A stretch of DNA of 63,837 bases, filler included, from Globobulimina sp. (lineage: Eukaryota): assembly GCA_003354225.1 (NCBI GenBank). It is 54 parts of 54 records of this genome, joined end to end, with 100 filler letters (N's around TTAATTAATTAA, not from the genome) between each part and the next. Parts side by side here need not be neighbours in the genome. Positions count along the whole stretch, not along the records: positions 60,389 to 61,471 come from PIVH01023999.1; 53 more parts are not named here. One strand, 5' to 3'. Within the stretch, counting starts at the first letter, position 1; each line of letters begins with the position of its first letter. The notes under the pieces were generated by a model. It worked only from the letters and a program-made list of their open reading frames with translations. It made no database searches and was not told the origin of the DNA. The position numbers and the translations under genes were made by a program. Shown here piece by piece: positions 2,227 through 62,754 of this stretch.

Positions 2227-2912
2227 TTAAAGAGCATTTGAACAATAAAAAACTGTTTTTATACTAGAAANNNNNNNNNNNNNNNNNNNNNNNNNNNNNN
2301 NNNNNNNNNNNNNNTTAATTAATTAANNNNNNNNNNNNNNNNNNNNNNNNNNNNNNNNNNNNNNNNNNNNATTTGCTGTTTCCAAACAAAATGCATTGGC
2401 CTTTGTTGCAGGATTTGTCATTGCAAAATTTATAGCGTTTATTGTAAATATATTGAATCCTAATTTGTTTTGATTGAACGATATATTCCAATAGATGTAT
2501 ACTAGTATTTTTCTTTTGGATTTGTTCTAACTTTGTTGTGTTAGCACTGCGCACCGTGGACTTACGCGTGTTTCTTATCGATACAGTGTTTCAATAAAGT
2601 TATCAGCTTACTTCAATTCTAGGAAATGTCCAACCCTCACAAGGTTATTCAAGCAAAAATTCGAATAGTTCTAAATATGTACAAGACATAAGTGCCAGAA
2701 CAACAACATTGCACAATCATGGACAAAAAAACTAAATAAGTATGGTCGAGCGGTAACACAAAAACAAAACTATGGTCATTATTCAATCAAACACAAAAAC
2801 CAAAAATCAAAAGATTTAAAAAAAAATTCAATGCACAACATCAGTGTCAGATAAAACACCAAATCCAGTTAAAATTTTTTTTTTGAACTAAAACAATAAT
2901 AATACATTAATA

Positions 2913-3338
2913 TTAATATAACACTGCAATAATAAATATAAACGCAATCGCTATTACGCTATTACCGCCATTTCTGAATCCAGCACCAATGGTATAATCC
3001 GGATGTGAACACGTTAACACTTCAGAATAATAATTTTGATGATTCCATTGTCGTTTATCACATCCATTTGGTTTATACAACGGGAAAATCCCCGTTTGAT
3101 TTCCCGTACAATTAAATTCATCCCATCGTTCGAGATACGCCGCGTCTTCGTTACATGCGGCATTATACCAATACCATTTTTTATTTGTGCCTCTCCCCTC
3201 AAATCCTTTAACGCACTGATTCGTAATCGCTGGAAACGTTTTATAAAATCTTTTGGACTCATCCCGTACACAAACTTCCTCCTCGGTGCCATTAACAATC
3301 TCAGTGGTCATCATTCCTAGCGATAATTTTATAATCAT
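2913..3338 (-). CDS. Cys-rich surface protein with C-terminal hydrophobic (TM/GPI) tail, 5'-partial
   Basis: Spaced Cys residues; ends VIAIAFIFIIAVLY. Confidence 0.5.
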   Translation of the reverse strand: MIIKLSLGMMTTEIVNGTEEEVCVRDESKRFYKTFPAITNQCVKGFEGRGTNKKWYWYNAACNEDAAYLERWDEFNCTGNQTGIFPLYKPNGCDKRQWNHQNYYSEVLTCSHPDYTIGAGFRNGGNSVIAIAFIFIIAVLY

Positions 3339-3651
3339 ATACTTTTATTTCTGACCGCGAAGATAGCCAAAATAAAAGGATAGTTCGTATAAAAAACTAA
3401 CCACTAAACCAGCTTTTGAATGCCTGAACTTTATAGCGACTTACAATAATCTCACNNNNNNNNNNNNNNNNNNNNNNNNNNNNNNNNNNNNNNNNNNNNT
3501 TAATTAATTAANNNNNNNNNNNNNNNNNNNNNNNNNNNNNNNNNNNNNNNNNNNNGATATTAATCATAAATAATATTAATATTAATAATAGCGATTAAAA
3601 TGATCTCGTTTGTTGCAAAAAATGACGGACATTTTCTGTTTTTTTGTATAC

Positions 3652-5925: not shown

Positions 5926-7010
5926 TAACTTATTTATATTCAAATTATCCATAATATCAATCTCAACGTTTGTATATGCGCCAATCGCATAAACTAAACC
6001 AGTGTTACTGTATAAATCATATATCTTTGAATCGCCACAAATTGTAAACTGTGTAAAATCTGCAAATATCCCATGTACCATATTGCCAGTATAGCCATAT
6101 AAATATGGTGTATTTTGCAGAAAATGCCCGGTTCCCTCGAAGTTCTCCATGTTCCCATCCCAATATTCAGTGCATAATGTTGAACCAAGTGGAGATTGTT
6201 CATGTAAGTTATAAATGGATAAAGTATCAAATTTAATATTTTCAACACCATCAATCCTGATACCCATCACGCCTTTGGCAGAATGGGTCATTCGATCGCC
6301 ATTACAACCTAGAAATGGATGTGAATGATCATCAACATCTGACCATTGGTATTTGCCCAGTGCCCAGCCACTAAACTCTTTGCCAATTACCATTAATCCT
6401 TTCTCGCCCCAATCATCAGTACACAAATCTAATGCAATGTGTGCGTCTGTCAATACATCACCAACATATTCAACGGTATTCCATGGAATATCATAATATC
6501 CTAAGTCTGTAATATCATCGCCTAATACACTGCGTGCATCTAATGCTGCATTGTACGGATTTGCATACGGCGTAATACTAAACTCATCCAAACGCAAATA
6601 TTCACGTGTTTTGTGCACTAAATCGTGGATGACCACATGTTCAATCTGCGCATTTTTAGAGTGCTTAAGTGAGGGATGGATTTGAAAAACATTTGCAAAG
6701 TATAAATTCAAAAATAAACCATACATTACCGCACCGTATGGGATACCATCTGAATTTATAAATAACTTCCTAGAAGAATCCGATATAAATGTCGTACCAC
6801 TACTCATTACATATTTAAATGCCATATCCATTTCATCGCGTAATGCCTCAATAATATCATCAATATCTGTGATCATTTTCTTTCTACCACTAAATGTAAA
6901 TGGAAACACATGTTTTTTATATTTTGCCGGATCATTCTTAATTCTTTCCAATCTCTGCAATGTAAACCTACCAAAGCCCTATTCCCCATTTAAGTATGCA
7001 CTGGTCCATG
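5926..7010 (-). CDS. Internal fragment of a large hypothetical protein
   Basis: Open frame across essentially the whole contig (~360 aa) with normal composition. Confidence 0.65.
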
Positions 7011-20184: not shown

Positions 20185-21110
20185 ATGAAAAAGTTTAATA
20201 GAGGACCACAACTTCCTATCAGAAGCAATGACGGAACACAAAAGAATGTGTTTATATCACGTTTAGTTCTCATGTCATTTGATCCAAGAGATAATATGGC
20301 TAAATTATTTGCGAGTCATTTGGATGGCGACAAGTACAACAATAAATTAACAAATTTAAAATGGTCGGAGAAGCGAAATACAAAGCCGACAGGTTCTCGT
20401 AAATCACCAATTAAGTTACAATCAAATGTAAATGGAGTGTTGGAGTTTGGAACTATCAAACACTGCAAGGAATATTTATTCACAAACAATATTGGTGTGT
20501 CAACATCCTGTATCTCTAACTGGTGCCGAGATAAAACACACAAACATATGGATATCGTTTCACATATCAAAATCCGGAAAAATATCAATATCAAGTTGAA
20601 GATAAAGAGAATGAAATTTGGAAAATGTTTGATATATCACTTAGAATGCATTATTATGTGTCTTGTTTTGGGCGTATTAAATCAAAAGTGATCACATCTG
20701 GTCGTGAACAACTTATGTCTCTCACACTGAATGGTGGATATTATCGTTTTCGGAGCAGCAGATGCTATGTACATAGAGTTGTTGCCAAATATTTTGTGGA
20801 GAATCCAAACAGTTATGATATGGTTGATCATATTGATGCAGATGTTTCTAACAACAACGCATTAAACTTAAGATGGGTAAAAGATCAAAAACAAAATCAC
20901 GAGAATCTACAATCTCGAAAGAATAAATCTATTGATATTAAAATAGAACAAATATCTTTGATCGACAGGTCTCTCATAAAAGTGTGGGAGAGAGCATCCG
21001 TTATTCATAATGAAATTGGGTTCCATTCTGGGTCCATATTGAATGTGTGTAGGAAAAAACAAAAGACAGCTTACGGTTTTGGTTGGCGTTTCGTTAGTAG
21101 TGTCACTTAA
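20185..21110 (+). CDS. Tandem HNH endonuclease with NUMOD4/NUMOD1 DNA-binding modules; one frameshift near 20545
   Basis: SHLDGDKYNNKLTNLKW; YVSCFGRIKS; HRVVAKYF...VDHIDADVSNNNALNLRWV; SILNVCRKKQKTAYGFGWRF. Confidence 0.85.
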
Positions 21111-22716: not shown

Positions 22717-22770
22717 GCATAACAAGCCAATTCAGCGGAGCTGAACGCCCGCTGATTGTAGTCGTTCCGC
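22717..22770 (+). mobile_element. Integron attC-like recombination site
   Basis: R'' GCATAAC, 5 bp, L'' AATTCAGC ... L' GCTGATT, 6 bp, R' GTTCCGC; L''/L' pair with one extrahelical base; lies 16 bp before the lysE ATG with AAGGA RBS. Confidence 0.7.
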
Positions 22771-22786
22771 TACACAAGGAAAATAT

Positions 22787-23407
22787 ATGTTTGATATACA
22801 AAACTATGGCAGTTTCATCATAACCATTGTTCTCTTTCAAATCATTCCGGGGGCCGGAACGATTACTATTTTGAATGCCACCGTGCGAAATGGTATCGGT
22901 ATCGGAATGAGTGCGGTCTTCGGAACTCTGGCAGGTGATTTTATATACATGGTTGCTGCAGTCCTCGGTCTGGCAGCAGTATTGAGTGTTTACCCCGGCA
23001 TACTTGCAAGCGCACAATGGGCCGGCACTGTTTACTTGTGCTGGATCGGCTGGAAACTTCTGCGGATATCAATGACAGAGCAACCAACAAATGTAGCATT
23101 GATGCAGGGAAGTTGGGCTTATTTTCGACAAGCACTCGCTGTCTGCCTCACCAACCCAAAGGCTATTATGTTTTTCATGGCCTTTTTTCCGTTGTTTCTC
23201 AGGCCTGAAGCTAAACCGGCAACTCTTTTCAGTCTAATGATGCACGTTACTGCCATCAGCTTTTTATACCAAACTTGTTTAGTGCTTGTTGGCAACGCTG
23301 TAGCCCGGCGACTTTCTCAATGGCAATACGCACGTTTATTGGCCAGTCGTTTGGCTGGAATAGCTTTTATTGGGTTTGGTATTAAATTAGCATTCAACAA
23401 TCGGTAA
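22787..23407 (+). CDS. LysE/RhtB family amino-acid exporter (bacterial)
   Basis: IIPGAG, AGTVYLCWIGWKLL, CLTNPKAIMFFMAFFPLF motifs; 206 aa; Shine-Dalgarno upstream. Confidence 0.92.
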   Translation: MFDIQNYGSFIITIVLFQIIPGAGTITILNATVRNGIGIGMSAVFGTLAGDFIYMVAAVLGLAAVLSVYPGILASAQWAGTVYLCWIGWKLLRISMTEQPTNVALMQGSWAYFRQALAVCLTNPKAIMFFMAFFPLFLRPEAKPATLFSLMMHVTAISFLYQTCLVLVGNAVARRLSQWQYARLLASRLAGIAFIGFGIKLAFNNR

Positions 23408-28600: not shown

Positions 28601-29491
28601 CTAAAGATGTAGTTTCTTTTTCTGAATTTGATTTGCTTGAAACCAGAGATATAATTCAACAGCGATCATATTAAAAACCCAACATGACCATGTTGCTGCA
28701 GTGTACGCAGATTCATATTTAATATATTCTGGTAATGGGCGTCCCCATGGATCATATTTTGCTGTATCTTCACCATAAAACCCGTATGATGGACCATTAT
28801 CAAACCCAAAAACAAACAGCAAGACCCAAAACCGAAACATTGCTGGACTTAGCATTAAGCCATAACTTCGTAGCATCCACATTCTATGTTTTCCAATGCG
28901 ATGTTTTTTATCTTTTTCATTCTCATGTTCGTGTTTAAATACTTTAATTAGTTTAATATAATAAAATCCAATCATTGTACTACAAAACCATAACATACTT
29001 GCAACCATTAACGATAATTTGGTGGAGAATCCACCAATTTCGGCATTAAAGGCCATTGCAAATGAGCCAATGGATGAAAAAAAAGTGCAAAATACATAGA
29101 TTCTTCCAAAGTATTTATGTAAATTACTAAATTGTCTCCTTAAAGGACCACAAACTTGGAAACTACCAATTATCTGACTCCTGAATGTGTGTATCACAGA
29201 TTCACAGTTAACCAATTAAAATAGTTGACGTATAACTACAAACCAAAAAGCGGGAATTATATGCAGGAATACCAAGAATTTTTCATCTTTGTAATGGCGT
29301 TGACGAAAATATATCTCATTGAATGAATAATAGAATGAAGCTAAAACACACATAAATATAGATAGTGATAACAAAACAATCCATATTAACCAACGGCACC
29401 AATGCCATTCGGGAAATAAGTCCTTTACAATGTCTATGGCTTTTGATTTTGTTTCAGTTTTGCTATCATAAGGTTGGGTCAAATGTTGCAT
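28601..29491 (-). CDS. DUF2306-type membrane protein, 2 exons
   Basis: LHIIPAFW|SQIIGSFQ...LHKYFGRIYV...HRMWMLRSY; GT-AG intron 29181-29243. Confidence 0.8.
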
Positions 29492-35432: not shown

Positions 35433-35581
35433 NNNNNNNNNNNNNNNNNNNNNNNNNNNNNNNNNNNNNNNNNNNNTTAATTAATTAANNNNNNNNNNNN
35501 NNNNNNNNNNNNNNNNNNNNNNNNNNNNNNNNCTGATTCGCAAAGCGGAGAATCAAAAACAAAGCCGACAAACTCAGAAAC

Positions 35582-36616
35582 ATGTTGCAAAACATGATAC
35601 AAATCATTGTTATTTTTATGTCAATTACAGACTTATCCAAAAGTGTTAATTTACCAGCTGAAGTCTATCAGAAAATTGAAAGTTGGCTTCCTACCCCTTC
35701 ACAAAATGCGTATCGATTATCATCCCACTCAAGTGCTCAGACATCAAAACAAAAACACATTATCACAGATCTTCAACAATTAAAAAAAATCATAAAAGTT
35801 GGATCTTCAACGTTTAAAAGATCTTCAGCGACAATTCATAGAAACTATTTATTCGAGTTGGATAAATTATCTTTTATAAAGTTAAATAGAATGATGAAAC
35901 AAGTGAAAAACTCTAAGATTTTAAATGTGTTTATTTTCCCAAATATTGAAATTTTGAAGCATTACATCAATACACCAAAGGATGTCCTGAAATTTATTGG
36001 TGTCAACCAGTATAAATTAGATTCATTACAACTTATTTGGAAAATGACAGAAATGATCACAGGTAGAAATTTTATCAATGTGGCAAATTGTACTCTTATT
36101 ACACCTCTTTTGGATGAAATTAAAACATTGAGACCTTTGGCAAATTCGTTATTTGGAACATTAGGTCAAAGATATTTTCCAATAGGTGTTGACAGTCCGA
36201 TAGTTCCGATACCAATAGGTGCTGATATTATTGATTTTAGAAATGTTGTGGTAATAAAATATGTTTTGGATTATTTAAATGCTGATAGGTTAAATGCGTA
36301 TCAGTATCACCACCTGCATTTTCAATTCGTTGCCCAAGCAATTGAATCTGTTATTATCAATGGTAGAATTGATTTATTTCGAACCATATTACAAGTTGGT
36401 GAATATGTATTAAATTATGATTTGTTTGCCAGGTTGTTACAGGACAAAGACATGATTGATGATACAACATATCTCAAAGTTATCCAACACGTGTTTTCAA
36501 TATCTTTACAATTTAGAATTGATAAAATTGATAGCACTAAAATGGAAATGTTTTGCAAAGAATTACGGCAAATAGAAGCAAAGATAATTAAAAATGAGGG
36601 GTGGAAAAAATTAATG
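35582..36616 (+). CDS. Hypothetical protein with signal-like N-terminus and F-box-like segment, 3'-partial
   Basis: MIQIIVIFMSITDLSKS then LPAEVYQKIESWL; ~345-aa open frame. Confidence 0.55.
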
Positions 36617-39502: not shown

Positions 39503-39576
39503 TGTGCGCTTGTATTAATTAATAGCCCCTTTACTCACTTCACATTCACATTCATAGGAAAAAGAGTTTTTTAAGC

Positions 39577-40149
39577 ATGCCTTTTTTAGAAGCAGAACCG
39601 TTAGGGTTTGGTAAAGATTTTGAGAATGCACATCCTTTATGGAACGCGGAAGTATCATTTATTTTGGATAAGTACTTGGAATCACATAACAATCAACGTA
39701 ATTCGCCCCAAAATTCAATGATTCAACGTACATTGGAATACGTACGCAAATTAAATAACTACTCAACTGCACAAAATTCGCAAGCGGCGAGAGCATTGAT
39801 GAAAAAAGGTGATAAGTTTACAGACTATGAATCTGCGTTAATTAATAATTTAAACATTGCATCCGTTGATGAAGCAATTACACTGATTCCTACATTAAAA
39901 GATAAATTCCCAAATACGGAAATATTAGCTACGCGTTTGGCCCATTTACAGGACTTTCAAAAATCAAATGATGATACAAACTATAATGTCACTTCATATT
40001 CTGCGCTGTCACAAAACTATCACAACACAAGCGTTGAAAAAACAACTGGAACAAATGACGAATCAAAGGAGAATGATGACGATATCTCTATGGTTCCTTC
40101 GAATAATTCACAAACTCCACAATCTGACATTTCAACCTATTCCAATTGA
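39577..40149 (+). CDS. RPB4: RNA polymerase II subunit RPB4
   Basis: FENAHPLWNAEVSFIL...RTLEYVRK...FTDYESALINNL...DEAITLIPTL. Confidence 0.85.
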   Translation: MPFLEAEPLGFGKDFENAHPLWNAEVSFILDKYLESHNNQRNSPQNSMIQRTLEYVRKLNNYSTAQNSQAARALMKKGDKFTDYESALINNLNIASVDEAITLIPTLKDKFPNTEILATRLAHLQDFQKSNDDTNYNVTSYSALSQNYHNTSVEKTTGTNDESKENDDDISMVPSNNSQTPQSDISTYSN

Positions 40150-41624: not shown

Positions 41625-42536
41625 TTAATGGATAGTACAAATTGAGTCCATTGTAGATTTAGAATCAGCCGATTCAGATTGAACAATACTAATATAATTC
41701 GGCAATTGCATGCCATCCACCCCATCATTTTCATAGTCACTCTCATCCAAAATTGCCTGCAAATCAATCTCCACCGAATCCTCAAACTCCTCCTCATATT
41801 CGCCGCATTCCAAGTCATCATAATCGATGAGGATCTCCTGCTTCTCGAAATATTCCATAATTAGGTCCTTAATCTCGCTCTCCGCGTGCATGAAATCCAT
41901 CTCATGCATTCCTTCGCTTCTATACCAATGCAGAAACGCCTTCTTTTCGAACAATTTATTGAAATTCTCCCAAATCCGCTCGAAACAGTCCTTGACAGAC
42001 GTCACATTCCCGACCATCGTGGCAGAGTATTCCGCCGTTTCTGGCTTAAGTTTGATGATCGCGGTTTTGATGTTATGCGGGATCCATTCCACAAAGTGGT
42101 CATTTTGCACATTCAAGTAGTTGGAGGTTATATTTTCAATCTCAGCGCTCGAGATATTGCGCCCTCTGTACATGATAGAGGCGGACAGAAACTTGCCATC
42201 GAATTTATTTTTGTGGTGCACAGAAGTGAGCGAATAGCGAGGCTTCCAGACATTATCTGAGATTTTGGCCAAACTCTGCTTTGACAGATTATATTCATGG
42301 CCTTTTTGCATCAACGGAGCGTACGCCGACGTGAAAAAATGTAAACGTGGGAACGGGATTAAGTTCACAGCCATTTTCCTGTACGTCGCAAACATGAGAA
42401 ATGTTTCCAAAAATGATATATATACTTACCTCAAGTCACAATTTAAAACGCCAGGAAAGCGCAACGACGCCGTGACGCCGGCCATAACCAACGATAAGAT
42501 CCAACTTAAGTCGGCAAAGCTGCGGTCGTTTTGATT
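41625..42536 (-). CDS. Highly divergent beta-tubulin of the foraminiferan/retarian beta-2 type, 5'-partial
   Basis: [70 protein letters not shown]; intron 42379-42429. Confidence 0.9.
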
Positions 42537-43820: not shown

Positions 43821-44710
43821 ATAATCCACTACATTATCACAGCAAATATTATGAATCCAATATACCCCAACAAACAATCAAAAACAACACAAAAAAAGAA
43901 AAGAAAGAGGCATTGGAACGGCAAAAAGAAGCACAAAAATCAACATTCCTATCCTACTTAAACCCGATATTTCTATTAACAAAAACATTTAATATCTGTT
44001 ACAATATAATCTATTACACATTCGACTCAATAATCCACCCTTACAAAGGCTATCAACGCCTACAAAATATGTGGAAAAGCATCAAACATTTCGTCAAACA
44101 CTTCTATGAAGCATCAAAATTAATGGGTACTGACATCAAAGCCGCCACCAAGATCCTGAGCAAAATGCGCAAAACCGGTGAATTAACCTACAGAGAACGG
44201 CGACAATTACGTAGAGTCACCATGGACGTGCTACGCTTCATTCCCATGCTGGTTATCATATTAATCCCCGCCTTGGAGATAGTAGTCCCATTCTTATTAA
44301 TCCTATTCCCCAATATGTTGCCTTCTCGCTTCCAGACTGAACATCAAAAATTGGAGCGCAGAAAGCAAATCTTAGCCTCACGCATCGGTCTAACTGCGTT
44401 TTTTGAGGACACTTTGCATGAATTTGTCAATGAGACCAAGACCAAACAAGAGTCATTAAAGTTAATTGGCAATGAAAAAATCGAATCGCTGGAAAAGTTA
44501 CTGGAGAAAGTTAAAAATAACGAAGAGATTTCCAACAATTCCATACTGAAACTGGCGAGTTTGTTTGACGACGAAATGGCTTTGGATAATGCCTCTGCCT
44601 CGGTCTTGGCCAATATGTGCCGGTATATGCAATTAAACCATTTTGGCACACAGCCGATGCTCAGAAAGAGATTGTATGATAAAATTCGGCAAATCCGCAA
44701 GGAGGACCAG
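43821..44710 (+). CDS. LETM1: LETM1/MDM38 mitochondrial protein, partial
   Basis: LTYRERRQLRRVTMDVLRFIP...FPNMLPSRF...LANMCRYM...IRKED. Confidence 0.9.
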
Positions 44711-46188
44711 GTATTATTCTGTCTGAAATTTATAGAAATTTCCTATAAATTAATATTATTCCATATTTTTGACATTATAAATTGTCAAAAATGTGCGAAT
44801 ATATCCACATTCCATGTTTGATTTTACAGCGTCAGAGAAAATTTAAAAAACACTTCTGACGCTGAACACTATAAACATGTAAATGTATCATCTCATTCAT
44901 CTGTNNNNNNNNNNNNNNNNNNNNNNNNNNNNNNNNNNNNNNNNNNNNTTAATTAATTAANNNNNNNNNNNNNNNNNNNNNNNNNNNNNNNNNNNNNNNN
45001 NNNNCGTATTAACATCAATAATATGCGAAGGCAGGGTGTGCGAAGGCGATTGTTTCTCATCTTCAGGTATTTCTTGTTGCAATTGAGGGTCTATGCTGTT
45101 TGTGGTGGCGCTTTGATGCGTGTCGGGTTCATTGGTCTTTTCATCATCAATTGCAACAATATCTTCGTCTGCGTTTGCATTCATATGTTCATTGCTGTCA
45201 TCATTATTATCCATGACCACCTCATTGCTGTCCATGGCTATCTCAGCGTTGGTGATATTATTCGAAGGTTCAATGTCTTGCTTTTCGTCGTCTTCTTGTT
45301 TTTTCTCTTCTTCATTCACATTATTGCTATTAATGAGGTTATTGTCTGTGTTGGCCACGGCAGTCATAGTCATATTCCCCATTAGATTCTGTTTTGATAT
45401 TAGTGCGAGGATATTTTTTATGAAATGTAAAATGAACAGTAACAAAATAAGTAACTTGATCTTGAAGGATGTTAAATATCGGTGATGAGGATCTAGAGTT
45501 TTGTTGCATAGTATTTGGTGTTATTCTGTTGATTTAATTGACAATAGACTCGGATTGTGATTTGTGAATGTGCAAATAAAAAAACCTATCACAAAAACCC
45601 AAAAACAAGCCAAATTTACTTATCTTGCCATACTCTCACGACATCACGACGTACACCACCCACATTGGTCACTGTAATGTACCACATGATGCATGCAAAT
45701 GTTTACGTTGTTACTGTTTTTATGACGTATGGGTAGAATTATGAACAATTAAATATATTGTATCTGCACACATGTATGAGACACCAAAAAAATCAGACAT
45801 TCCAAGTATTGATGCAGGACAAGAAGATGAAAGTACACCTTTTAAAAACTTTATGAATAGGAACCAACAAACATTATATATTTCCGACAATGCAGATAGA
45901 TTTAGGCAAATATTTAAAGACAAGCCATTATCATACAAAGTAAAATTTATAGTAACAAACGGATTGGCCAAAGATCCACAAAATAACGTTAACAACGAAA
46001 ATGAAACAAGCTCAGATGACGAGAAAATTAATGAAGTTCTTGGGGATTGCTTGCCAGAATTTTATAAATTATCAGAAACCGATCAAAANNNNNNNNNNNN
46101 NNNNNNNNNNNNNNNNNNNNNNNNNNNNNNNNTTAATTAATTAANNNNNNNNNNNNNNNNNNNNNNNNNNNNNNNNNNNNNNNNNNNN

Positions 46189-48591: not shown

Positions 48592-49005
48592 TCAATCACC
48601 ACGAATTCGTCTGGCTAATTGCATGTCCTTGGGCATTATGGTTACACGATTTGCGTGAATTGCGCACAAATTAGTGTCTTCGAAAAGTCCCACCAAATAG
48701 GCTTCGCTGGCTTCTTGTAGGGCTTCCAAAGCGGACGATTGAAAACGTAAATCGGATCGAAAATCTTGGGCAATTTCTTTCACCAAACGTCGAAAAGGGG
48801 CTTTGCGAATTATGGTTTCTGTCGATTTTTGATATTTTCTAATTTCCCTCAAAGCGGCTTGTCCGGGTCTGTACCTTTTCCTTTTGTTCAACGGGTCGAT
48901 GGGATACTTTTTGACAGGGGCTGGTCTCTTTCGAGGTTTAACGGCTAGAGGCAATCGGGTGACAGGTGGTTGATACTTTCTGGCAGTTTGTTTGGTTCGA
49001 GCCAT
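48592..49005 (-). CDS. H3: Histone H3 variant with remodelled N-terminal tail
   Basis: [63 protein letters not shown]. Confidence 0.95.
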
Positions 49006-49070
49006 CTCTCAGAGCAAAAATAAACGAATGGCATATAGGATAGGCTAATATACTCTGGCACTGACATGGG

Positions 49071-50924: not shown

Positions 50925-52007
50925 AATAAACTCGAAGAGGAATTGGCCAAATCGGTCATCGAATGCCGGCGCTTAGAGACCATCATCGATTCGCTCAAAA
51001 CCAAGATCTGCGAGAAAGAGATGAAGAAACATAAAAATAAAAATAAAAATAAAGTGTCCAAGTCCAAATCCAAGAAGCGGACCTTTAAAATCTTTGAGAA
51101 ATCCAAAGAACAGTTACAAAGCGAACTGTCTTCGACGCAAAACAAGCTCAAACAGGAGATATCGAATCGGGACCGCCTGAAAGCGCAATTGCAGCAAAAG
51201 TCAAAGTACAGAGATGTGCTTTTCAGCAAAGTGATCACTGACTTTATTCGCCACGAAGAGTATCGCCTGAAAATGAACAAATACATTTACTGCATTTACA
51301 GCAAAATAAACGAAGAATCCCTCATCAAAATGCATAAATTAACCACAAAATTAAAGCAAAATGTTGAGACCATCATTATTCGCAATAATTTGCAGAAATT
51401 TGTCATTGCCAATCGGTCCTCGCAAAATGTCCCAAAAATTGTTTTAGATCACGCCATTTTTAAAATGTCATCGCAAAAAGACGACGATTTATTTAACAAA
51501 ACAAGAGAAAGCATGTCAAATATATTGGCATTATACAGCAATCCCAACGAAATATTAAATAATAAGTTAATATTTGACCACAATGCAACGGATAATGTGG
51601 CATTATTAGACTCAAAAGAAAAGGAAACAGAAAAAGATATAGTGTTAAATATAAAAAATATAACAAAGATCACAAAGATGTCGCTACCAAAAATGAAAAA
51701 GGTTTCATCCAATCAACAAATATCGAAACATTTATTAGAATATGTGACCAGACACAGTATGAAAGGCGGGAAACACGCTAGAATTGACTCATTACATTCG
51801 ATTTCACGAAGTACACAACCTCGAAAATTAAATATTAAAATAAATCATATGAATAATATTAATATGAATATGAACAATATCGGCATCACAAAGATTGACG
51901 AACAGAAAGAAGACCACATACACATACAATCACAGCATGAGGAGGAGGAGGAGGATGAGGAAGAGGATGAGGATGAGGATGAGGACGACGATGATAGCAA
52001 AACAATG
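50925..52007 (+). CDS. Coiled-coil protein fragment with poly-acidic tract
   Basis: Open frame across the whole contig. Confidence 0.6.
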
Positions 52008-52202
52008 NNNNNNNNNNNNNNNNNNNNNNNNNNNNNNNNNNNNNNNNNNNNTTAATTAATTAANNNNNNNNNNNNNNNNNNNNNNNNNNNNNNNNNNNNN
52101 NNNNNNNAGGATAAAAATAACGCAAGTTTCGTTTTCAGCACACTTTTTGTGTCACAGAAAATAAACTTTGTTACTAAAAGCTCTAAACCTTACTACCTTA
52201 GC

Positions 52203-53190
52203 ATGGTCGACAATAAGCCAGACGAGAAACTGAATGAAGACGACATTAAAGACGCACGCGAATCCGCCAAAAAAAACAAAACCATCTGGGTGACAGCAGG
52301 GCCCACCAAGCCATTCGGCGTCGATTTCGTAAAAATGAAACAATTAGGAAATGCCGGCCAATATGGCGTGACCTATCAATGTAAGCGCAAAACGGATGGC
52401 CGAGTGGTCGCAGTCAAGCATTTGAACAAGAATAGATTTTATAGAATTTCCGTGCAACATCGGCACCGATATTTAGCCGCAATGTGTGACGAAATCGATG
52501 TGCTGAAAACCTTGAAACATTCGTATATTATCAAATTATTGGACGTGTATGAAGATAAGACGACGTTATATATCATAATGGAAGAATGCAAAGGCGGCGA
52601 ATTATTTGCCCGCATCTGCCAACGCGGCAAATATACAGAAAAAAGTGCGGCCTCTGTCATCAGACAGGTCCTCTCTGCCTTGCGGTACATGCACGACGAC
52701 AACGGCATTGTGCACTGCGATTTGAAGGTTTGTCTCCATACACCCTACGTTCTCTGCGTACTGTAATGCGTACAATATAAAGCCGGACAACATCTTATTT
52801 CTGACCGCCGAGGAGGACTCCCCTGTGAAAATCATAGACTTTGGAATGAGCAAAGTGTTGCCGCGGCTGCAGTACTTGACCAATCTGTGCGGTACGCCCT
52901 ATTACACGGCGCCAGAGGTGATCAAGAACCGCAAATACAACCATGCCTGCGATATGTGGAGCGTTGGCGTCATTTTATATGTCATGATCTATGGCTATCC
53001 ACCGTATGTAATATGCACTGTATACACACATATAACCACTAAGAATGTGTATATGTTTATATTTTATGTAGACCCACAGCAATATGGTCACAATGAACGC
53101 AAAGCAATCTACGATAAGATCGTGAAGGGCTTCAATCCCACCATTCGGGACACCTCCATCTATGGCTATGGCCCCTGGTTCCCGGACCAT
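52203..53190 (+). CDS. CAMK/CDPK-family Ser/Thr kinase, 3'-partial
   Basis: VAVK, HCDLK|PDNILF (intron 52728-52782), DFG, GTPYYTAPE, DMWSVGV. Confidence 0.92.
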
Positions 53191-54158: not shown

Positions 54159-54613
54159 AAACTCTCTAAGTCACAGTCACGCCAAACACACAAAAGCAAA
54201 CAAAAATTAAAAGTTAAATGAGTCCACACAGGGGGCACAAACTACATAAACATAAATAAAATAAAACCATTACCGATTTTCTATGTGGAAGTTTATTTAG
54301 CAAATGGATTATAAACCATATGACGAGACAGTAGAGACAATAGAGTGAGGACTTTTAATTAATCCACGCCTCTNNNNNNNNNNNNNNNNNNNNNNNNNNN
54401 NNNNNNNNNNNNNNNNNTTAATTAATTAANNNNNNNNNNNNNNNNNNNNNNNNNNNNNNNNNNNNNNNNNNNNAGATACATGGACTAGACACTTCGATAT
54501 GTACTGAGAAGCAGAAAAGTATAGGTGAACCTGAACCTACGGCAACACCAACTCCAGTAAATCCATATTTATGACAACCAAAGAAAACCAAAGATACTGA
54601 TGTCCAGAATTAT

Positions 54614-55556
54614 ATGAACAAGAAAAAGGAGGGAAAGAAACGTTTATCAAAGACAAAGACCAAAGAAATTATACATAATTTTGATATATTATATGCTAAT
54701 GTGTGCTCTATGAACTCTAAATCTGAATTAATATGTGATCACATTGAAACAATAAATCCTTCTGTATTATGCTGTGTTGAGACTAGGTATAAAAATTATC
54801 TGAAAATAGAAAAATATGATGAATACGATAGTTTTCATAAATTGCAAACAGGTAACAAAACAGGCGGTATAAGTGTATGGGCAAAAAAGGAAACAAAACC
54901 GAGTAGATTGGATTTGGACGATACAGAGGACGATATTTCAAGTAACTACTTGTGGGTATTATGTCAGAATTTGGGTAATACTGCCATATGTACTGTATAC
55001 TTAAGGAACCAAAGTGACCCAAATGCTAGGACAACCAATACAACTATATGCCAGAGACTGATCCAACACATAAATTGGTGTAAAATAAATAAGTACAATA
55101 CAATAATTATGGGGGATTTCAATGCCCACATTGGTAACGATAATTTTGGAATCGAAAATAATCATGAAGATATTAACAGTACTGGATTTATAGTACGTAA
55201 TTTCATCAATGATTGCAAATTAAACCTTCTGAATAATCATAAAAATGTTTCTGGTTTATGGACATGGGGGTTCAACAGAAACTCGAAACCACAAATATTA
55301 GATCTCGTTATGGCGAATGACGAAATTCACATTGACAAACTTGAAATAGACGAAGAAAATATTAAATATGGCAATGGTAATGGCGACCATTGCTTTATTC
55401 TAGGAAAATTCAAATCTAAATTCATTAAATCAATAAAATCCAAAGTGGAACATAAAAAGAGATGGGATATAAAGGACGATACAAACTGGGTTAATTATAA
55501 ATCAGAAATCATCACTAATTTAGAAATAAAATTAAGCACCAATAACGAATTAGAAA
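54614..55556 (+). mobile_element. Non-LTR retrotransposon APE endonuclease domain (ORF2 N-terminus)
   Basis: YANVCSM, CCVET, TGGISVW, MGDFNAHIG, LDLVM, GDH. Confidence 0.88.
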
Positions 55557-55684
55557 NNNNNNNNNNNNNNNNNNNNNNNNNNNNNNNNNNNNNNNNNNNN
55601 TTAATTAATTAANNNNNNNNNNNNNNNNNNNNNNNNNNNNNNNNNNNNNNNNNNNNACACATGCACCGCGCGCCCCAAAGAAAA

Positions 55685-56035
55685 CAAACATGCGCGCCGC
55701 GCGCATTCCTATCATCGTGCTCGGTGGCAAAAGCACAAAGTTTTCGTCTTCCAGCTCGGCCAGTTGGAGCGATCTTCGCGGGGCTTTGGGATGCGTCAGA
55801 GGAAGCACCGCAACTGTCGGGAGTTTGCAAAACTCTTCTGACACTATTTTGGTGTGGCGAACGGGAAGAGAACCCATTGCAAGATCGCAGGTCCGATCCA
55901 GCACGTGTCTTTCAAGGAGTACCCTGCCTTCTGCGGAAAGCGACACCTCCTGATTTGGCCTTTCGTCGAGGAATTGGGACAAAGCCGGAATAACAATCGG
56001 CGCTGCAAGCCTGGGCATCACAGCAAGGCGAAACC
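55685..56035 (-). CDS. LysR-type regulator substrate-binding domain fragment (bacterial)
   Basis: RLAVMPRLAAPIVIPALSQFLDERP...CDLAM...VAVLPLTHP...LAELEDENFVLL; GC-richer than its neighbours. Confidence 0.8.
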
Positions 56036-56042
56036 GGCGCAG

Positions 56043-56525
56043 ATGGATGGTATTGGCGGTGGTGACGGGGACTATGCGGTGTGGAATAAGGAGGCCATGA
56101 AAGAGATTGAGGCGATCAAAAGTGGCCAGTTTGCAGCCGGGAAAAAGAAGGGTGGCGGTAATGTGAAGAAACGCAAATCAGTGAAATCTTTGCATGCGGC
56201 GGCTGGGACGAAGCCGAAAGTGGATTATGGTGCGGTGGCGTTGTCGGAGAGAAAGAAGTGGGCCTTTCAAATGTGTGACAATTTGCCGACGCCGAGATCG
56301 AGAGAGGTGGCGAGTTGGTCGGCTCAGCAGATTGGCGATTTTATAGCGAAAATACCCATATTTGGCTTGAATGAGTGGTATGGAAATAAGTTTAAAGAAT
56401 GCGGCGTTTCGGGCAAAATGTTTTTGGACTGCAATGAGGATAAATTGATCGGATGGGGCATTGATAGGAAATGCCATCGAGCCAGATTCAGAGCGGAAGC
56501 ATTAGCGATGAAAAGGAGAGGATAG
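56043..56525 (+). CDS. SAM-domain protein C-terminus (eukaryotic)
   Basis: VASWSAQQIGDFI...YGNKFKECGVSGKMFL...LIGWGI...HRARF; T-rich 3' UTR. Confidence 0.75.
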   Translation: MDGIGGGDGDYAVWNKEAMKEIEAIKSGQFAAGKKKGGGNVKKRKSVKSLHAAAGTKPKVDYGAVALSERKKWAFQMCDNLPTPRSREVASWSAQQIGDFIAKIPIFGLNEWYGNKFKECGVSGKMFLDCNEDKLIGWGIDRKCHRARFRAEALAMKRRG

Positions 56526-60388: not shown

Positions 60389-61471
60389 TGTTCAAAGCAA
60401 TACAAAGAGGCTATGAAGTCGAACATATTTTTGAAGTAAGCCGAATATTATATTTGGAATATTCGGCATGACCCCTTCAAAAATATATTATATACTTTTC
60501 AGTTATGGGACTATGGACCTGAAAAGGAAGACATCTTTGCCGAATATGTTTCAAGGATGATTAAAATGAAAACTCAACACAGCCCAATCCCCAGTGGAAT
60601 GACCGTCGAACAATTCTGTACCATTTGGAATGAGAGAGTTCCTGGGATGGAACTGAAACCCGAAGACTGCTCCGAATCCCCTGCTATGAGACAATCTGCC
60701 AAAATTCTGATGAATTCATTGTGGGGTAAGTACGATTTTATAAAGCTGTTACATTCTTGTTAATCTCATTATTTCAGGAAAATTTTGTGAAAGGGCTACC
60801 AAATCCGAAACCATGTTGATCAGCAACTGGCAATCATTGAAAAGACAGTTTGATGATAAAGAGAAGGAGATAACCAGAATTGAACAACTCACCGACCGTT
60901 CATTGGTGATCAGCTACAAGCAGAATGAGTCATTCATCACAGAATCGTCAATGTATAACCCGGTTATTGGTGCATATGTGACAGCCTATGCTCGAACCAC
61001 CCTCTTGGAAAACTGTTTGGAAGTTGTGGGAGACCGGGCATTGTATTGTGATACAGGTAAGTTGTCAATTATTTTTAACAACTTCGTTGGTATGAGAAAG
61101 CCTTTCAGACAGCTTGGTCTACCTCAGGATCCCTGGTGAAAGAGAACCAGTCAGAGGGGAAGCTTTGGGACAGCTCGCCAATGAACTTAAAAAAGATGAA
61201 TTCATCACATGCTTCCAATGCATAGCTCCAAAGACATGGAGGGCAGAAGTGTCTGTTAGAAAAACTGAACACCCTATTACGTGGCAACATAAAAGAACAA
61301 TAATTAAGTCAAAAGGTATTTCAAAGATTGTACATAAAATATCAAACCTTATCCTGCTACCTTTTTAGGCATACATTTGGGAGCCATCGGGTCGAGCATC
61401 AAAGAGTCATTCGATGTTAGAGAGCTGTGGAATGATCTTATCACCATGAGGCTGGTCAGCGAAGATGGAAG
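60389..61471 (+). mobile_element. Polinton/Maverick-type protein-primed DNA polymerase B, spliced (5 exons in view)
   Basis: Exons 60389-60435, 60503-60725, 60778-61056, 61109-61315, 61369-61471 join without stops: KAIQRGY..AKILMNSLWG|KF..IGAYVTAYAR..LYCDT|DSLVY..LGQLANE..APKTW..KSK|GI. Confidence 0.92.
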
Positions 61472-62754
61472 NNNNNNNNNNNNNNNNNNNNNNNNNNNNN
61501 NNNNNNNNNNNNNNNTTAATTAATTAANNNNNNNNNNNNNNNNNNNNNNNNNNNNNNNNNNNNNNNNNNNNTTGAATCTAATCCATGACACCACATTCCA
61601 TTTCCGTAAATATGTGAATTAGTGTGAATTATGTCCGATCTTTTCAGATTTCGGCACCCAAATCTTGAAAATATCACTGATATTTTGGTCTGATATTTTG
61701 TCTTTTAGAGGACAATCGGAGATATTCAACACACTAATATTTATTGACTGTTCATTGTTATAAACAGTTTCAGAAATTTCTCAACGACCTAGGCTCGATG
61801 ACATTGGTCAAAGAGATATTGGTTTTAGTTTTCAATTAGCAATCATTCGCCATCAGTATTAAAACTCCACACGGTCGAATATTGCCACCTGCGCGAGGCA
61901 GAAAAAACAATAAACCAAAATAATCATCTTCCACAATATTTCATAGTTCACACTGAATTAAGATCCAATGCACTGAAAACACACAGTAATGAAGCAAGTA
62001 ATATGCACGTTTTGCTTGCGTGTTAATCGGTGTTATAAGCAATAAATCTCATTGGATTTACCTCATCCATATTACCTTGAATATTACCTTGAAATACACG
62101 TCTCCAGTACCAGAAACAATCATTATTTGCAAATCCTTGTTTTTTACAATCTGTTTTGGTTTTAACTTTAAATTTCCCATCTTTCCATGATAAATATGCT
62201 TCACCCGCAGCTATTTTGGTATTCACTAACATTCCTGATGCTGATTTCCATTCTTTTTCATTTACAATACATTGCTTTATTATATTGTTTTTCTTCAAAA
62301 TTATCTCTATGTTTTGTTAATATTCCACCAATTTGCCAACTTACTTTTGAACGAAAACCATAAAGATAATCATCGTTGATTTCAAATCCTGATGCTTTTA
62401 ATGTTTCAGATGGCCATGGTGTTACATCATGTCGCTCTAATTGTCCTAAACCATGAATGGAGTTACTAGTGGATATTTGTCTGCATTTAATTTTCTTGGA
62501 TATTTCAATGCATTTAATTGTTCAATGTGATCATGAATTAATGTACCAATAATTAATGATAATATTTGTTTCATTATTTTTTTATAATTATTTACGATTT
62601 AACACAATACCTTACCTTATTAATTATAAGATATTTGCAATTGTATGAGTTTTGNNNNNNNNNNNNNNNNNNNNNNNNNNNNNNNNNNNNNNNNNNNNTT
62701 AATTAATTAANNNNNNNNNNNNNNNNNNNNNNNNNNNNNNNNNNNNNNNNNNNN

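Follow-up and report, generated by a model that had tools for sequence, protein, structure and literature searches.

As far as the available portions of the cited papers go, the core genes of virus-like elements of the Polinton/Maverick type are normally described as intron-free. Intact vertebrate Mavericks are described as carrying intronless open reading frames, which is said to match Kapitonov and Jurka 2006 (PMC8097293), and in a Caenorhabditis Maverick the core genes are intronless, with introns in the cargo genes only (10.1101/2022.07.12.499685). The endogenous viruses of protists are likewise said to be without introns, a statement that stands in a methods section and there justifies a prokaryotic gene caller; large surveys use such callers on this premise (PMC10120064). 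Within the text available, GT-AG sites are reported to be absent from the polinton-like viruses of Oxyrrhis (PMC12721341), and group I introns are the only introns mentioned in a survey of nematode polymerases (10.1101/2023.08.22.554363). Dinoflagellates provide the exception, with Maverick-Polinton-like proviruses that are described as populated by repeated introner transposons (PMC11957031 / PMC12166617). A preliminary description of the locus studied here held that the protein-primed family B polymerases (pPolBs) of such elements are usually compact and intron-poor, which agrees with the intronless core genes of these papers. Among the literature titles and abstracts covered, none describes a Polinton polymerase with spliceosomal introns at conserved sites; earlier annotation of such introns is possible. 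Some early Polinton annotations may show exons.

The locus presented here has motif B, motif C, the KxY region and K.KG in the same order and sequence as the pPolBs of Polintons/Mavericks. It differs from the described Maverick/Polinton genes in carrying four predicted spliceosomal introns within 1.08 kb, three of them in conserved motifs, and in reading KTW for KxY.

Structure and identity of the polymerase fragment

The fragment fills exactly one whole contig (60389-61471, 1083 bp, GC 0.40) of the window, the term used here for the whole analysed stretch of 63,837 bases. Four GT-AG introns had been proposed for it, three of them inside motif B, motif C and KSK|G, together with a single stop-free frame after their removal. 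The coordinates, lengths and GT..AG ends of all four were borne out, the spliced frame runs through 285 codons and is open at both contig ends, and the three motif junctions fall where they had been placed, with the split codons restored on splicing. Read without splicing, the contig has many stops in all three frames.

All features lie on the + strand. Partial exon a (60389..60435; first full codon at 60391) is open at the contig start, reads ..RGYEVEHIFE and is followed by intron 1 (60436..60502, 67 nt, GTAAGC..TTTCAG; junction IFE|LW). Exon b (60503..60725) ends in the motif B residues NSLWG, with the Asn at 60713 and the Gly codon beginning at its last base, 60725; this codon is split (NSLWG|KF) by intron 2 (60726..60777, 52 nt, GTAAGT..TTTCAG). 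Exon c (60778..61056) extends from the KF of motif B to the YCDT of motif C (Tyr at 61044), and its last base, 61056, opens motif C's second Asp codon, which is split (YCDT|DS) by intron 3 (61057..61108, 52 nt, GTAAGT..TTTCAG). Exon d (61109..61315) holds PKTW, the KxY equivalent (61228-61239), and KSK (61306-61314). The Gly codon of K.KG is split (KSK|G) by intron 4 (61316..61368, 53 nt, GTATTT..TTTTAG), and partial exon e (61369..61471) forms the start of the thumb region and is open at the contig end.

Intron 1 is a phase 0 intron and introns 2-4 are phase 1. The introns are poorer in GC (0.27-0.33) than the exons (0.43), the donors are GTAAG in three introns and GTATT in one, and the acceptors are TTTCAG in three and TTTTAG in one. 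A consensus donor, a pyrimidine-rich acceptor and the recovery of both frame and homology on excision are the marks of spliceosomal (U2-type GT-AG) introns, and the four introns, predicted from sequence, bear these marks and look real. What they share with one another or with other contigs does not go beyond chance words of at most 17 nt, and an introner origin was rejected, there being no repeat likeness among the introns or to the rest of the window.

Judged by profile, homologues and motifs, the fragment is a protein-primed family B polymerase (PF03175 type) of the kind carried by Polintons and Mavericks, an identity already put forward from its motifs in the preliminary description. The spliced product is colinear with 16 uninterrupted homologues, with zero gaps at the four junctions. 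Against a profile of eight pPolBs, each of which passes PF03175 in Pfam, it scored 187 bits (E 3e-59, computed for a search space of one sequence) over profile positions 927-1170 of 1250, and it was 26-38% identical to 25 homologues over 159-294 aligned columns (E 1e-24 to 1e-39). When single exons were compared with Pfam, exon b alone matched PF03175, at 23.3 bits and below the cut-off of 25.8, and an exhaustive protein search with exon c returned 61 proteins at E ≤0.001. PF03175 was present in 10 of 14 proteins scanned against Pfam, nine of which pass the cut-off, and two of the 14 are spurious repeat proteins. A close relative at 70% identity (P0002) passes PF03175 with 31.3 bits (gathering score, 25.8 bits), as do full-length distant relatives of 1248-1388 aa at E 1e-32 to 1e-49 (P0016, P0039, P0040 and P0049). 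The relatives with names are uncharacterised insect proteins, from a parasitoid wasp, a beetle and an ant, and one transcript from the protist Lithocolla.

Motif B (NSLWGKF), motif C (YCDTDS) and PKTW occur in this order in the spliced product, which restores the motif B consensus LNSxWGKF in alignment with the homologues' motif and contains both Asp residues of DTD. That the usual PKxY reads PKTW here, as had been noted, was upheld by the comparison: all 14 homologues covering the site (of 16 aligned) have Tyr, and P0001, which is 88% identical, likewise has KTW. The visible part spans palm to thumb, about 285 of roughly 1250-1390 codons. One relative (P0075) reaches 70 residues further upstream than the contig and is still short of the exonuclease motifs, motif A and the TPR insertions.

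By its family description, PF03175 extends to the pPolBs of adenoviruses, plasmids and organelles, and there is no genomic context beyond the contig. Both points leave room for a source in some other nuclear DNA virus or plasmid-like element with a pPolB, such as an exogenous virus of adintovirus-like or adenovirus-like type that uses spliced transcripts. Though the adenovirus polymerase mRNA is spliced, such a source is very unlikely: the nearest full-length relatives are proteins of 1250-1390 aa, a size typical of Polinton/Maverick polymerases, and insect or protist genome proteins, the multiple diverged copies found in one sample (below) fit integrated elements better, and codon-splitting introns inside conserved motifs and shared across copies are not a known feature of free small DNA viruses.

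Intron sites, diverged copies and selection

The close relatives are short reading frames that were predicted by prokaryote-style gene callers on metagenome contigs of 0.5-2.4 kb. These frames run into introns, so that the points at which they break report intron positions, and by this measure the intron sites are common to relatives at 61-97% identity. At the intron 1 site, P0075 (74% identical in exon b) carries an 18-residue in-frame insert. Homology breaks at the intron 2 site in P0065, P0064, P0075 and P0004 (61%); P0065, a copy that is ~97-99% identical and has the same exon frame, carries a 17-residue in-frame insert there, which is one base shorter than intron 2 of the present contig. 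The intron 3 site is broken in P0065, P0003, P0001 (88%), P0002 (70%) and P0005. The break at intron 4 is common to P0001, and a sediment copy has the acceptor TTTTTTCAG at this junction (loose end 61389). P0004 and P0005 share an extra break before YNP, an additional intron that the present contig is without. The excisions restore the motifs exactly and independent relatives are broken at the same sites, an agreement that, on this comparative evidence, is far beyond chance.

Intron 2 is precisely absent from P0002, in which NSLWGKFCER is read straight through, and, in DNA, from a contig of the sediment run X3, in which the codons for KFCERSNKT continue past 60726. P0075 has intron 2, yet 53 of 57 of its residues are those of P0002 up to the junction; by this comparison, intron 2 is either present or precisely absent inside one sub-lineage. 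This exact in-frame absence, seen in DNA, speaks indirectly for a biologically real junction, and is the pattern that would be expected from loss via a spliced copy or from a true intron gain.

The break in motif C extends to seven distant matches at 30-40% identity (P0009, P0012, P0018, P0023, P0024, P0026 and P0035), all of which lose homology right after ..DT, with Gly as the next residue. A phase-1 GT intron reads as Gly in this position, and the seven breaks therefore fit a motif C intron. Counted over the 46 scored rows, the break occurs in 12, the present sequence included; P0005 (segment <60 aa) and rows without a recognisable motif C were left out of the count, and 11 ids were excluded by hand, namely the LETM1 matches P0068-P0073, the false matches P0006, P0007 and P0063, and the near-duplicates P0066 and P0076. 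A quick-method tree of the region spanning motifs B and C (94 columns, 47 rows) supported the clade of five that holds the present sequence (97) and no other. On this tree the motif C intron takes eight changes, just one of them forced by supported branches, which fits one origin or several.

The contigs of four runs, the probable source sample (X1) and three marine sediment metagenomes, were compared with 60389-61471. X1 has 12 contigs on this stretch (two at least 99% alike, one 90-95% and nine <90%), and two different diverged X1 contigs both cover 61103-61193 in exon d, which points to several diverged copies that co-occur in X1. This follows from short contigs, and X1 also holds bacterial DNA, so that a mixture of organisms is possible. 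The sediment metagenomes contributed 47, 5 and 5 contigs, 80% to >99% alike; those at least 99% alike number 3 of 47, 0 of 5 and 0 of 5, so nearly all are other copies.

Among the best-supported 40 of 227 differences, 27 lie in the 859 exon bases and 13 in the 224 intron bases, and 22 of these 27 exon differences are at third codon positions (binomial p 4e-7). Small indels, to the extent that they are listed (12 of 36), fall without exception in introns 1 and 3, as seven deletions in intron 1 and five indels in intron 3 of sediment copies. The only exon length change among the listed differences is an in-frame +60 nt at 61130-61143 in exon d, where all three sediment metagenomes and P0001 have 72 letters compared to 12 here, for a loop after motif C that is 20 residues longer. 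Diverged copies stop aligning at the intron borders (loose ends 60497/60506, 60732, 61103 and 61389). The copies thus diverged under purifying selection for the spliced frame while the introns drifted.

Within intron 1, a perfect 10-bp hairpin can be formed between 60440-60449 and 60458-60467 (GCCGAATATT / AATATTCGGC), and a 15-nt stretch that takes in the end of exon a and the first intron base (60436) pairs with mid-intron sequence at 93% complementarity (60422-60489 region). The hairpin region is probably not conserved, as much of it is deleted in sediment copies.

A density of about four introns per kb is closer to what host genes typically show than to the core genes described for Mavericks, which lack introns. 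With exons under purifying selection, it would suit a host gene or small family that was domesticated from a Polinton polymerase, immobile and with ordinary host introns and a cellular role under selection. The sediment variants could then stem from many related species, each with its orthologue of a single host gene. Element partner genes are absent among the window frames, though this is uninformative for contigs of just 1 kb, and a study of Ginger1 provides a parallel in which conserved intron positions link the transposon gene to the domesticated Gin-1 (PMC2836005). Domestication is nonetheless unlikely. Several diverged copies occur in one probable source sample, and the variation among close relatives in intron presence, in the extra intron and in the in-frame 60 nt is what an evolving multi-copy family would more typically show; the retention of all catalytic motifs also speaks against a domesticated gene, though it fits either reading. 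Of the two alternatives that the preliminary description had left side by side, a domesticated gene or an intronised lineage, the latter is thus favoured by the diverged copies, the sediment variants and the variable introns, and the former keeps a minor share.

A dead relic would be a decaying endogenous Polinton fragment, now silent and unspliced, in which the signal of selection predates the insertion. Such a fate is common in vertebrates, where 96% of Maverick loci are degraded (PMC8097293), and just a quarter of the gene is visible here, with lesions possible elsewhere among the roughly 1250-1390 codons. Lesions had been named beforehand as the sign of a decayed copy; stops and frameshifts are absent and the motifs intact, a result that holds for about 285 codons. 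The four GT..AG pairs are also intact and of good consensus, and the copy at ~97-99% identity (P0065) combines an unchanged exon frame with an intron 2 whose length differs by one base. A relic is accordingly rather improbable.

The reading preferred here, at a probability of roughly 0.55, is a multi-copy, selected lineage of Polinton/Maverick-type polymerases with conserved spliceosomal introns, expressed via host splicing. It is supported by the gene structure, the colinearity with homologues, the shared intron sites, the purifying selection and the precise intron-less variant in DNA; splicing, polymerase activity and a place in a mobile Polinton-like element are all three inferred. Transcription would take place in the nucleus of the host and the host spliceosome would remove the four short introns and restore motif B, motif C and K.KG, and the resulting mRNA would encode the element's replicase. 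Enzymes of the pPolB type carry out protein-primed DNA synthesis, by which the element would be copied. With copying from DNA to DNA and no RNA intermediate, introns once acquired would pass to all daughter copies, and the polymerase gene would become dependent on nuclear splicing. A further-reading version, offered tentatively, is a propagating Polinton/Maverick lineage, common across benthic eukaryotes of the sea, in which several spliceosomal introns have become a stable part of the core replicase gene, one of them within a catalytic Asp codon; the motif C intron would be ancient, replication would depend obligately on host nuclear splicing, and the introns might act as camouflage against the host's silencing of intronless foreign genes.

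Assembly context and host

The window is made up of 54 pieces of 1083-1085 bp each, ordered by length and set apart by N..TTAATTAATTAA..N spacers. The pieces are separate contigs joined together, and neighbouring pieces therefore give no genomic context. Both eukaryotic and bacterial-type genes are found among them. The contig that comes next in the window carries a complete gene for the U4 spliceosomal snRNA (Rfam RF00015, 75 bits; 61756-61900, - strand), and at least part of the assembly thus belongs to a eukaryote with a spliceosome. Eukaryotic-type genes comprise LETM1, histone, tubulin, Rpb4, a protein kinase, Kelch repeats and a non-LTR retrotransposon endonuclease. Pfam matches place uninterrupted genes for a core histone (48595-49008, -), a tubulin C-terminal domain (41628-42425, -), LETM1 (43823-44818, +) and Rpb4 (39526-40146, +), and the nearest relatives of the LETM1 frame are marine/protist catalogue proteins at 46-73% identity. 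The retrotransposon endonuclease domain (Exo_endo_phos_2, E 1e-9; 54575-55555, +) fills most of its contig. Bacterial-type domains include a LysR substrate-binding domain (55659-56177, -), a LysE translocator (22745-23404, +) and DUF2306 (28604-29215, -), whose contigs are richer in GC (up to 0.47), which indicates that the assembly mixes a eukaryote and bacteria.

One tRNA was found among the window contigs, and a frame at 20535-21107 (+) matches the HNH_3 endonuclease domain (E 5e-6), on a contig that is otherwise without assignment. Of 78 window frames of at least 110 aa, 52 match no Pfam family; many contigs of AT-rich DNA are filled by such frames of 320-360 aa (e.g. 1258-2226, 5926-6978, 35537-36616 and 50925-52007), which may be genes of a fast-evolving protist or of a large virus.

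Integrase, capsid, packaging ATPase and protease were looked for among the 78 frames of at least 110 aa in the other 53 contigs, and none was present. The polymerase contig itself ends inside the gene, and its span of 1083 bp leaves element partners and TIRs beyond reach. Searches of metagenome, genome and viral contigs gave no longer locus of the same lineage. A 17-kb metagenome contig (L001) has an uninterrupted, distant pPolB at 2390-3628 that is 23-26% identical; it belongs to a different lineage, and the matched part is without introns. Among viral contigs, there were two weak matches (L002 and L003), and further searches gave none.

Marine sediments are rich in nematodes, and short introns with TTTCAG acceptors fit nematodes. 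A nematode origin had been suggested for the locus on the style of its introns, its only basis, which does not establish the attribution: the style is compatible with nematodes and not specific to them, and none of the 30 matching proteins whose names were checked is a named nematode sequence. A strict scan of the window for the same intron style found it in this contig only, and a relaxed GT..AG scan gave 65 candidates, too noisy to be used. The other clearly split gene in the window, a protein kinase (contig 52108-53190, +), has introns of a different style, with one probable intron of 55 nt at 52728-52782 (+; GTTTGT..AAAG), between HCDLK and PDNIL, and a second of 72 nt at 53008-53079 (+; GTAATA..ACAG) that is read through in frame. 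The GC3 of the spliced polymerase frame (0.45) falls within the span of 0.25-0.59 covered by 22 other long frames, and composition therefore does not separate the polymerase contig from the rest.

Significance and comparison with intron-bearing elements

The gene architecture appears real and unusual, with good comparative support, and the claim is a modest one, drawn from one 1-kb fragment and short relatives. Should a selected, intron-bearing lineage be the true explanation, some virus-like elements would have adopted the gene architecture of their hosts and would need a spliceosome, and intron positions would become markers of element history, including loss via spliced copies. Metagenome surveys would also undercount such elements, as the close relatives are all truncated frames that end at an intron. 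If the motif C intron were ancient, a large intron-bearing Polinton clade may have been fragmented by prokaryote-style callers and missed by surveys. A domesticated family would instead mean that a viral protein-primed polymerase has been kept by a eukaryote.

The closest parallels to the proposed lineage come from two described systems. The introner-bearing proviruses of dinoflagellates are likewise Polinton-like elements with spliceosomal introns and hence dependent on host splicing. Dinoflagellate introners are repeated copies, mostly younger than or of the same age as the host's own introns, whereas the four introns here are dissimilar, 52-67 nt in length and at sites conserved across copies that are 61-97% identical. 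In Ginger1 transposases, one to four canonical GT-AG introns are likewise inherited by all copies of an element that is copied as DNA, and intron positions and phases are conserved in common with relatives (PMC2836005), as is the case here for the positions. Ginger1 encodes a cut-and-paste transposase, whereas the gene described here is of the type that serves as the replicase of a self-synthesising, virus-like element.
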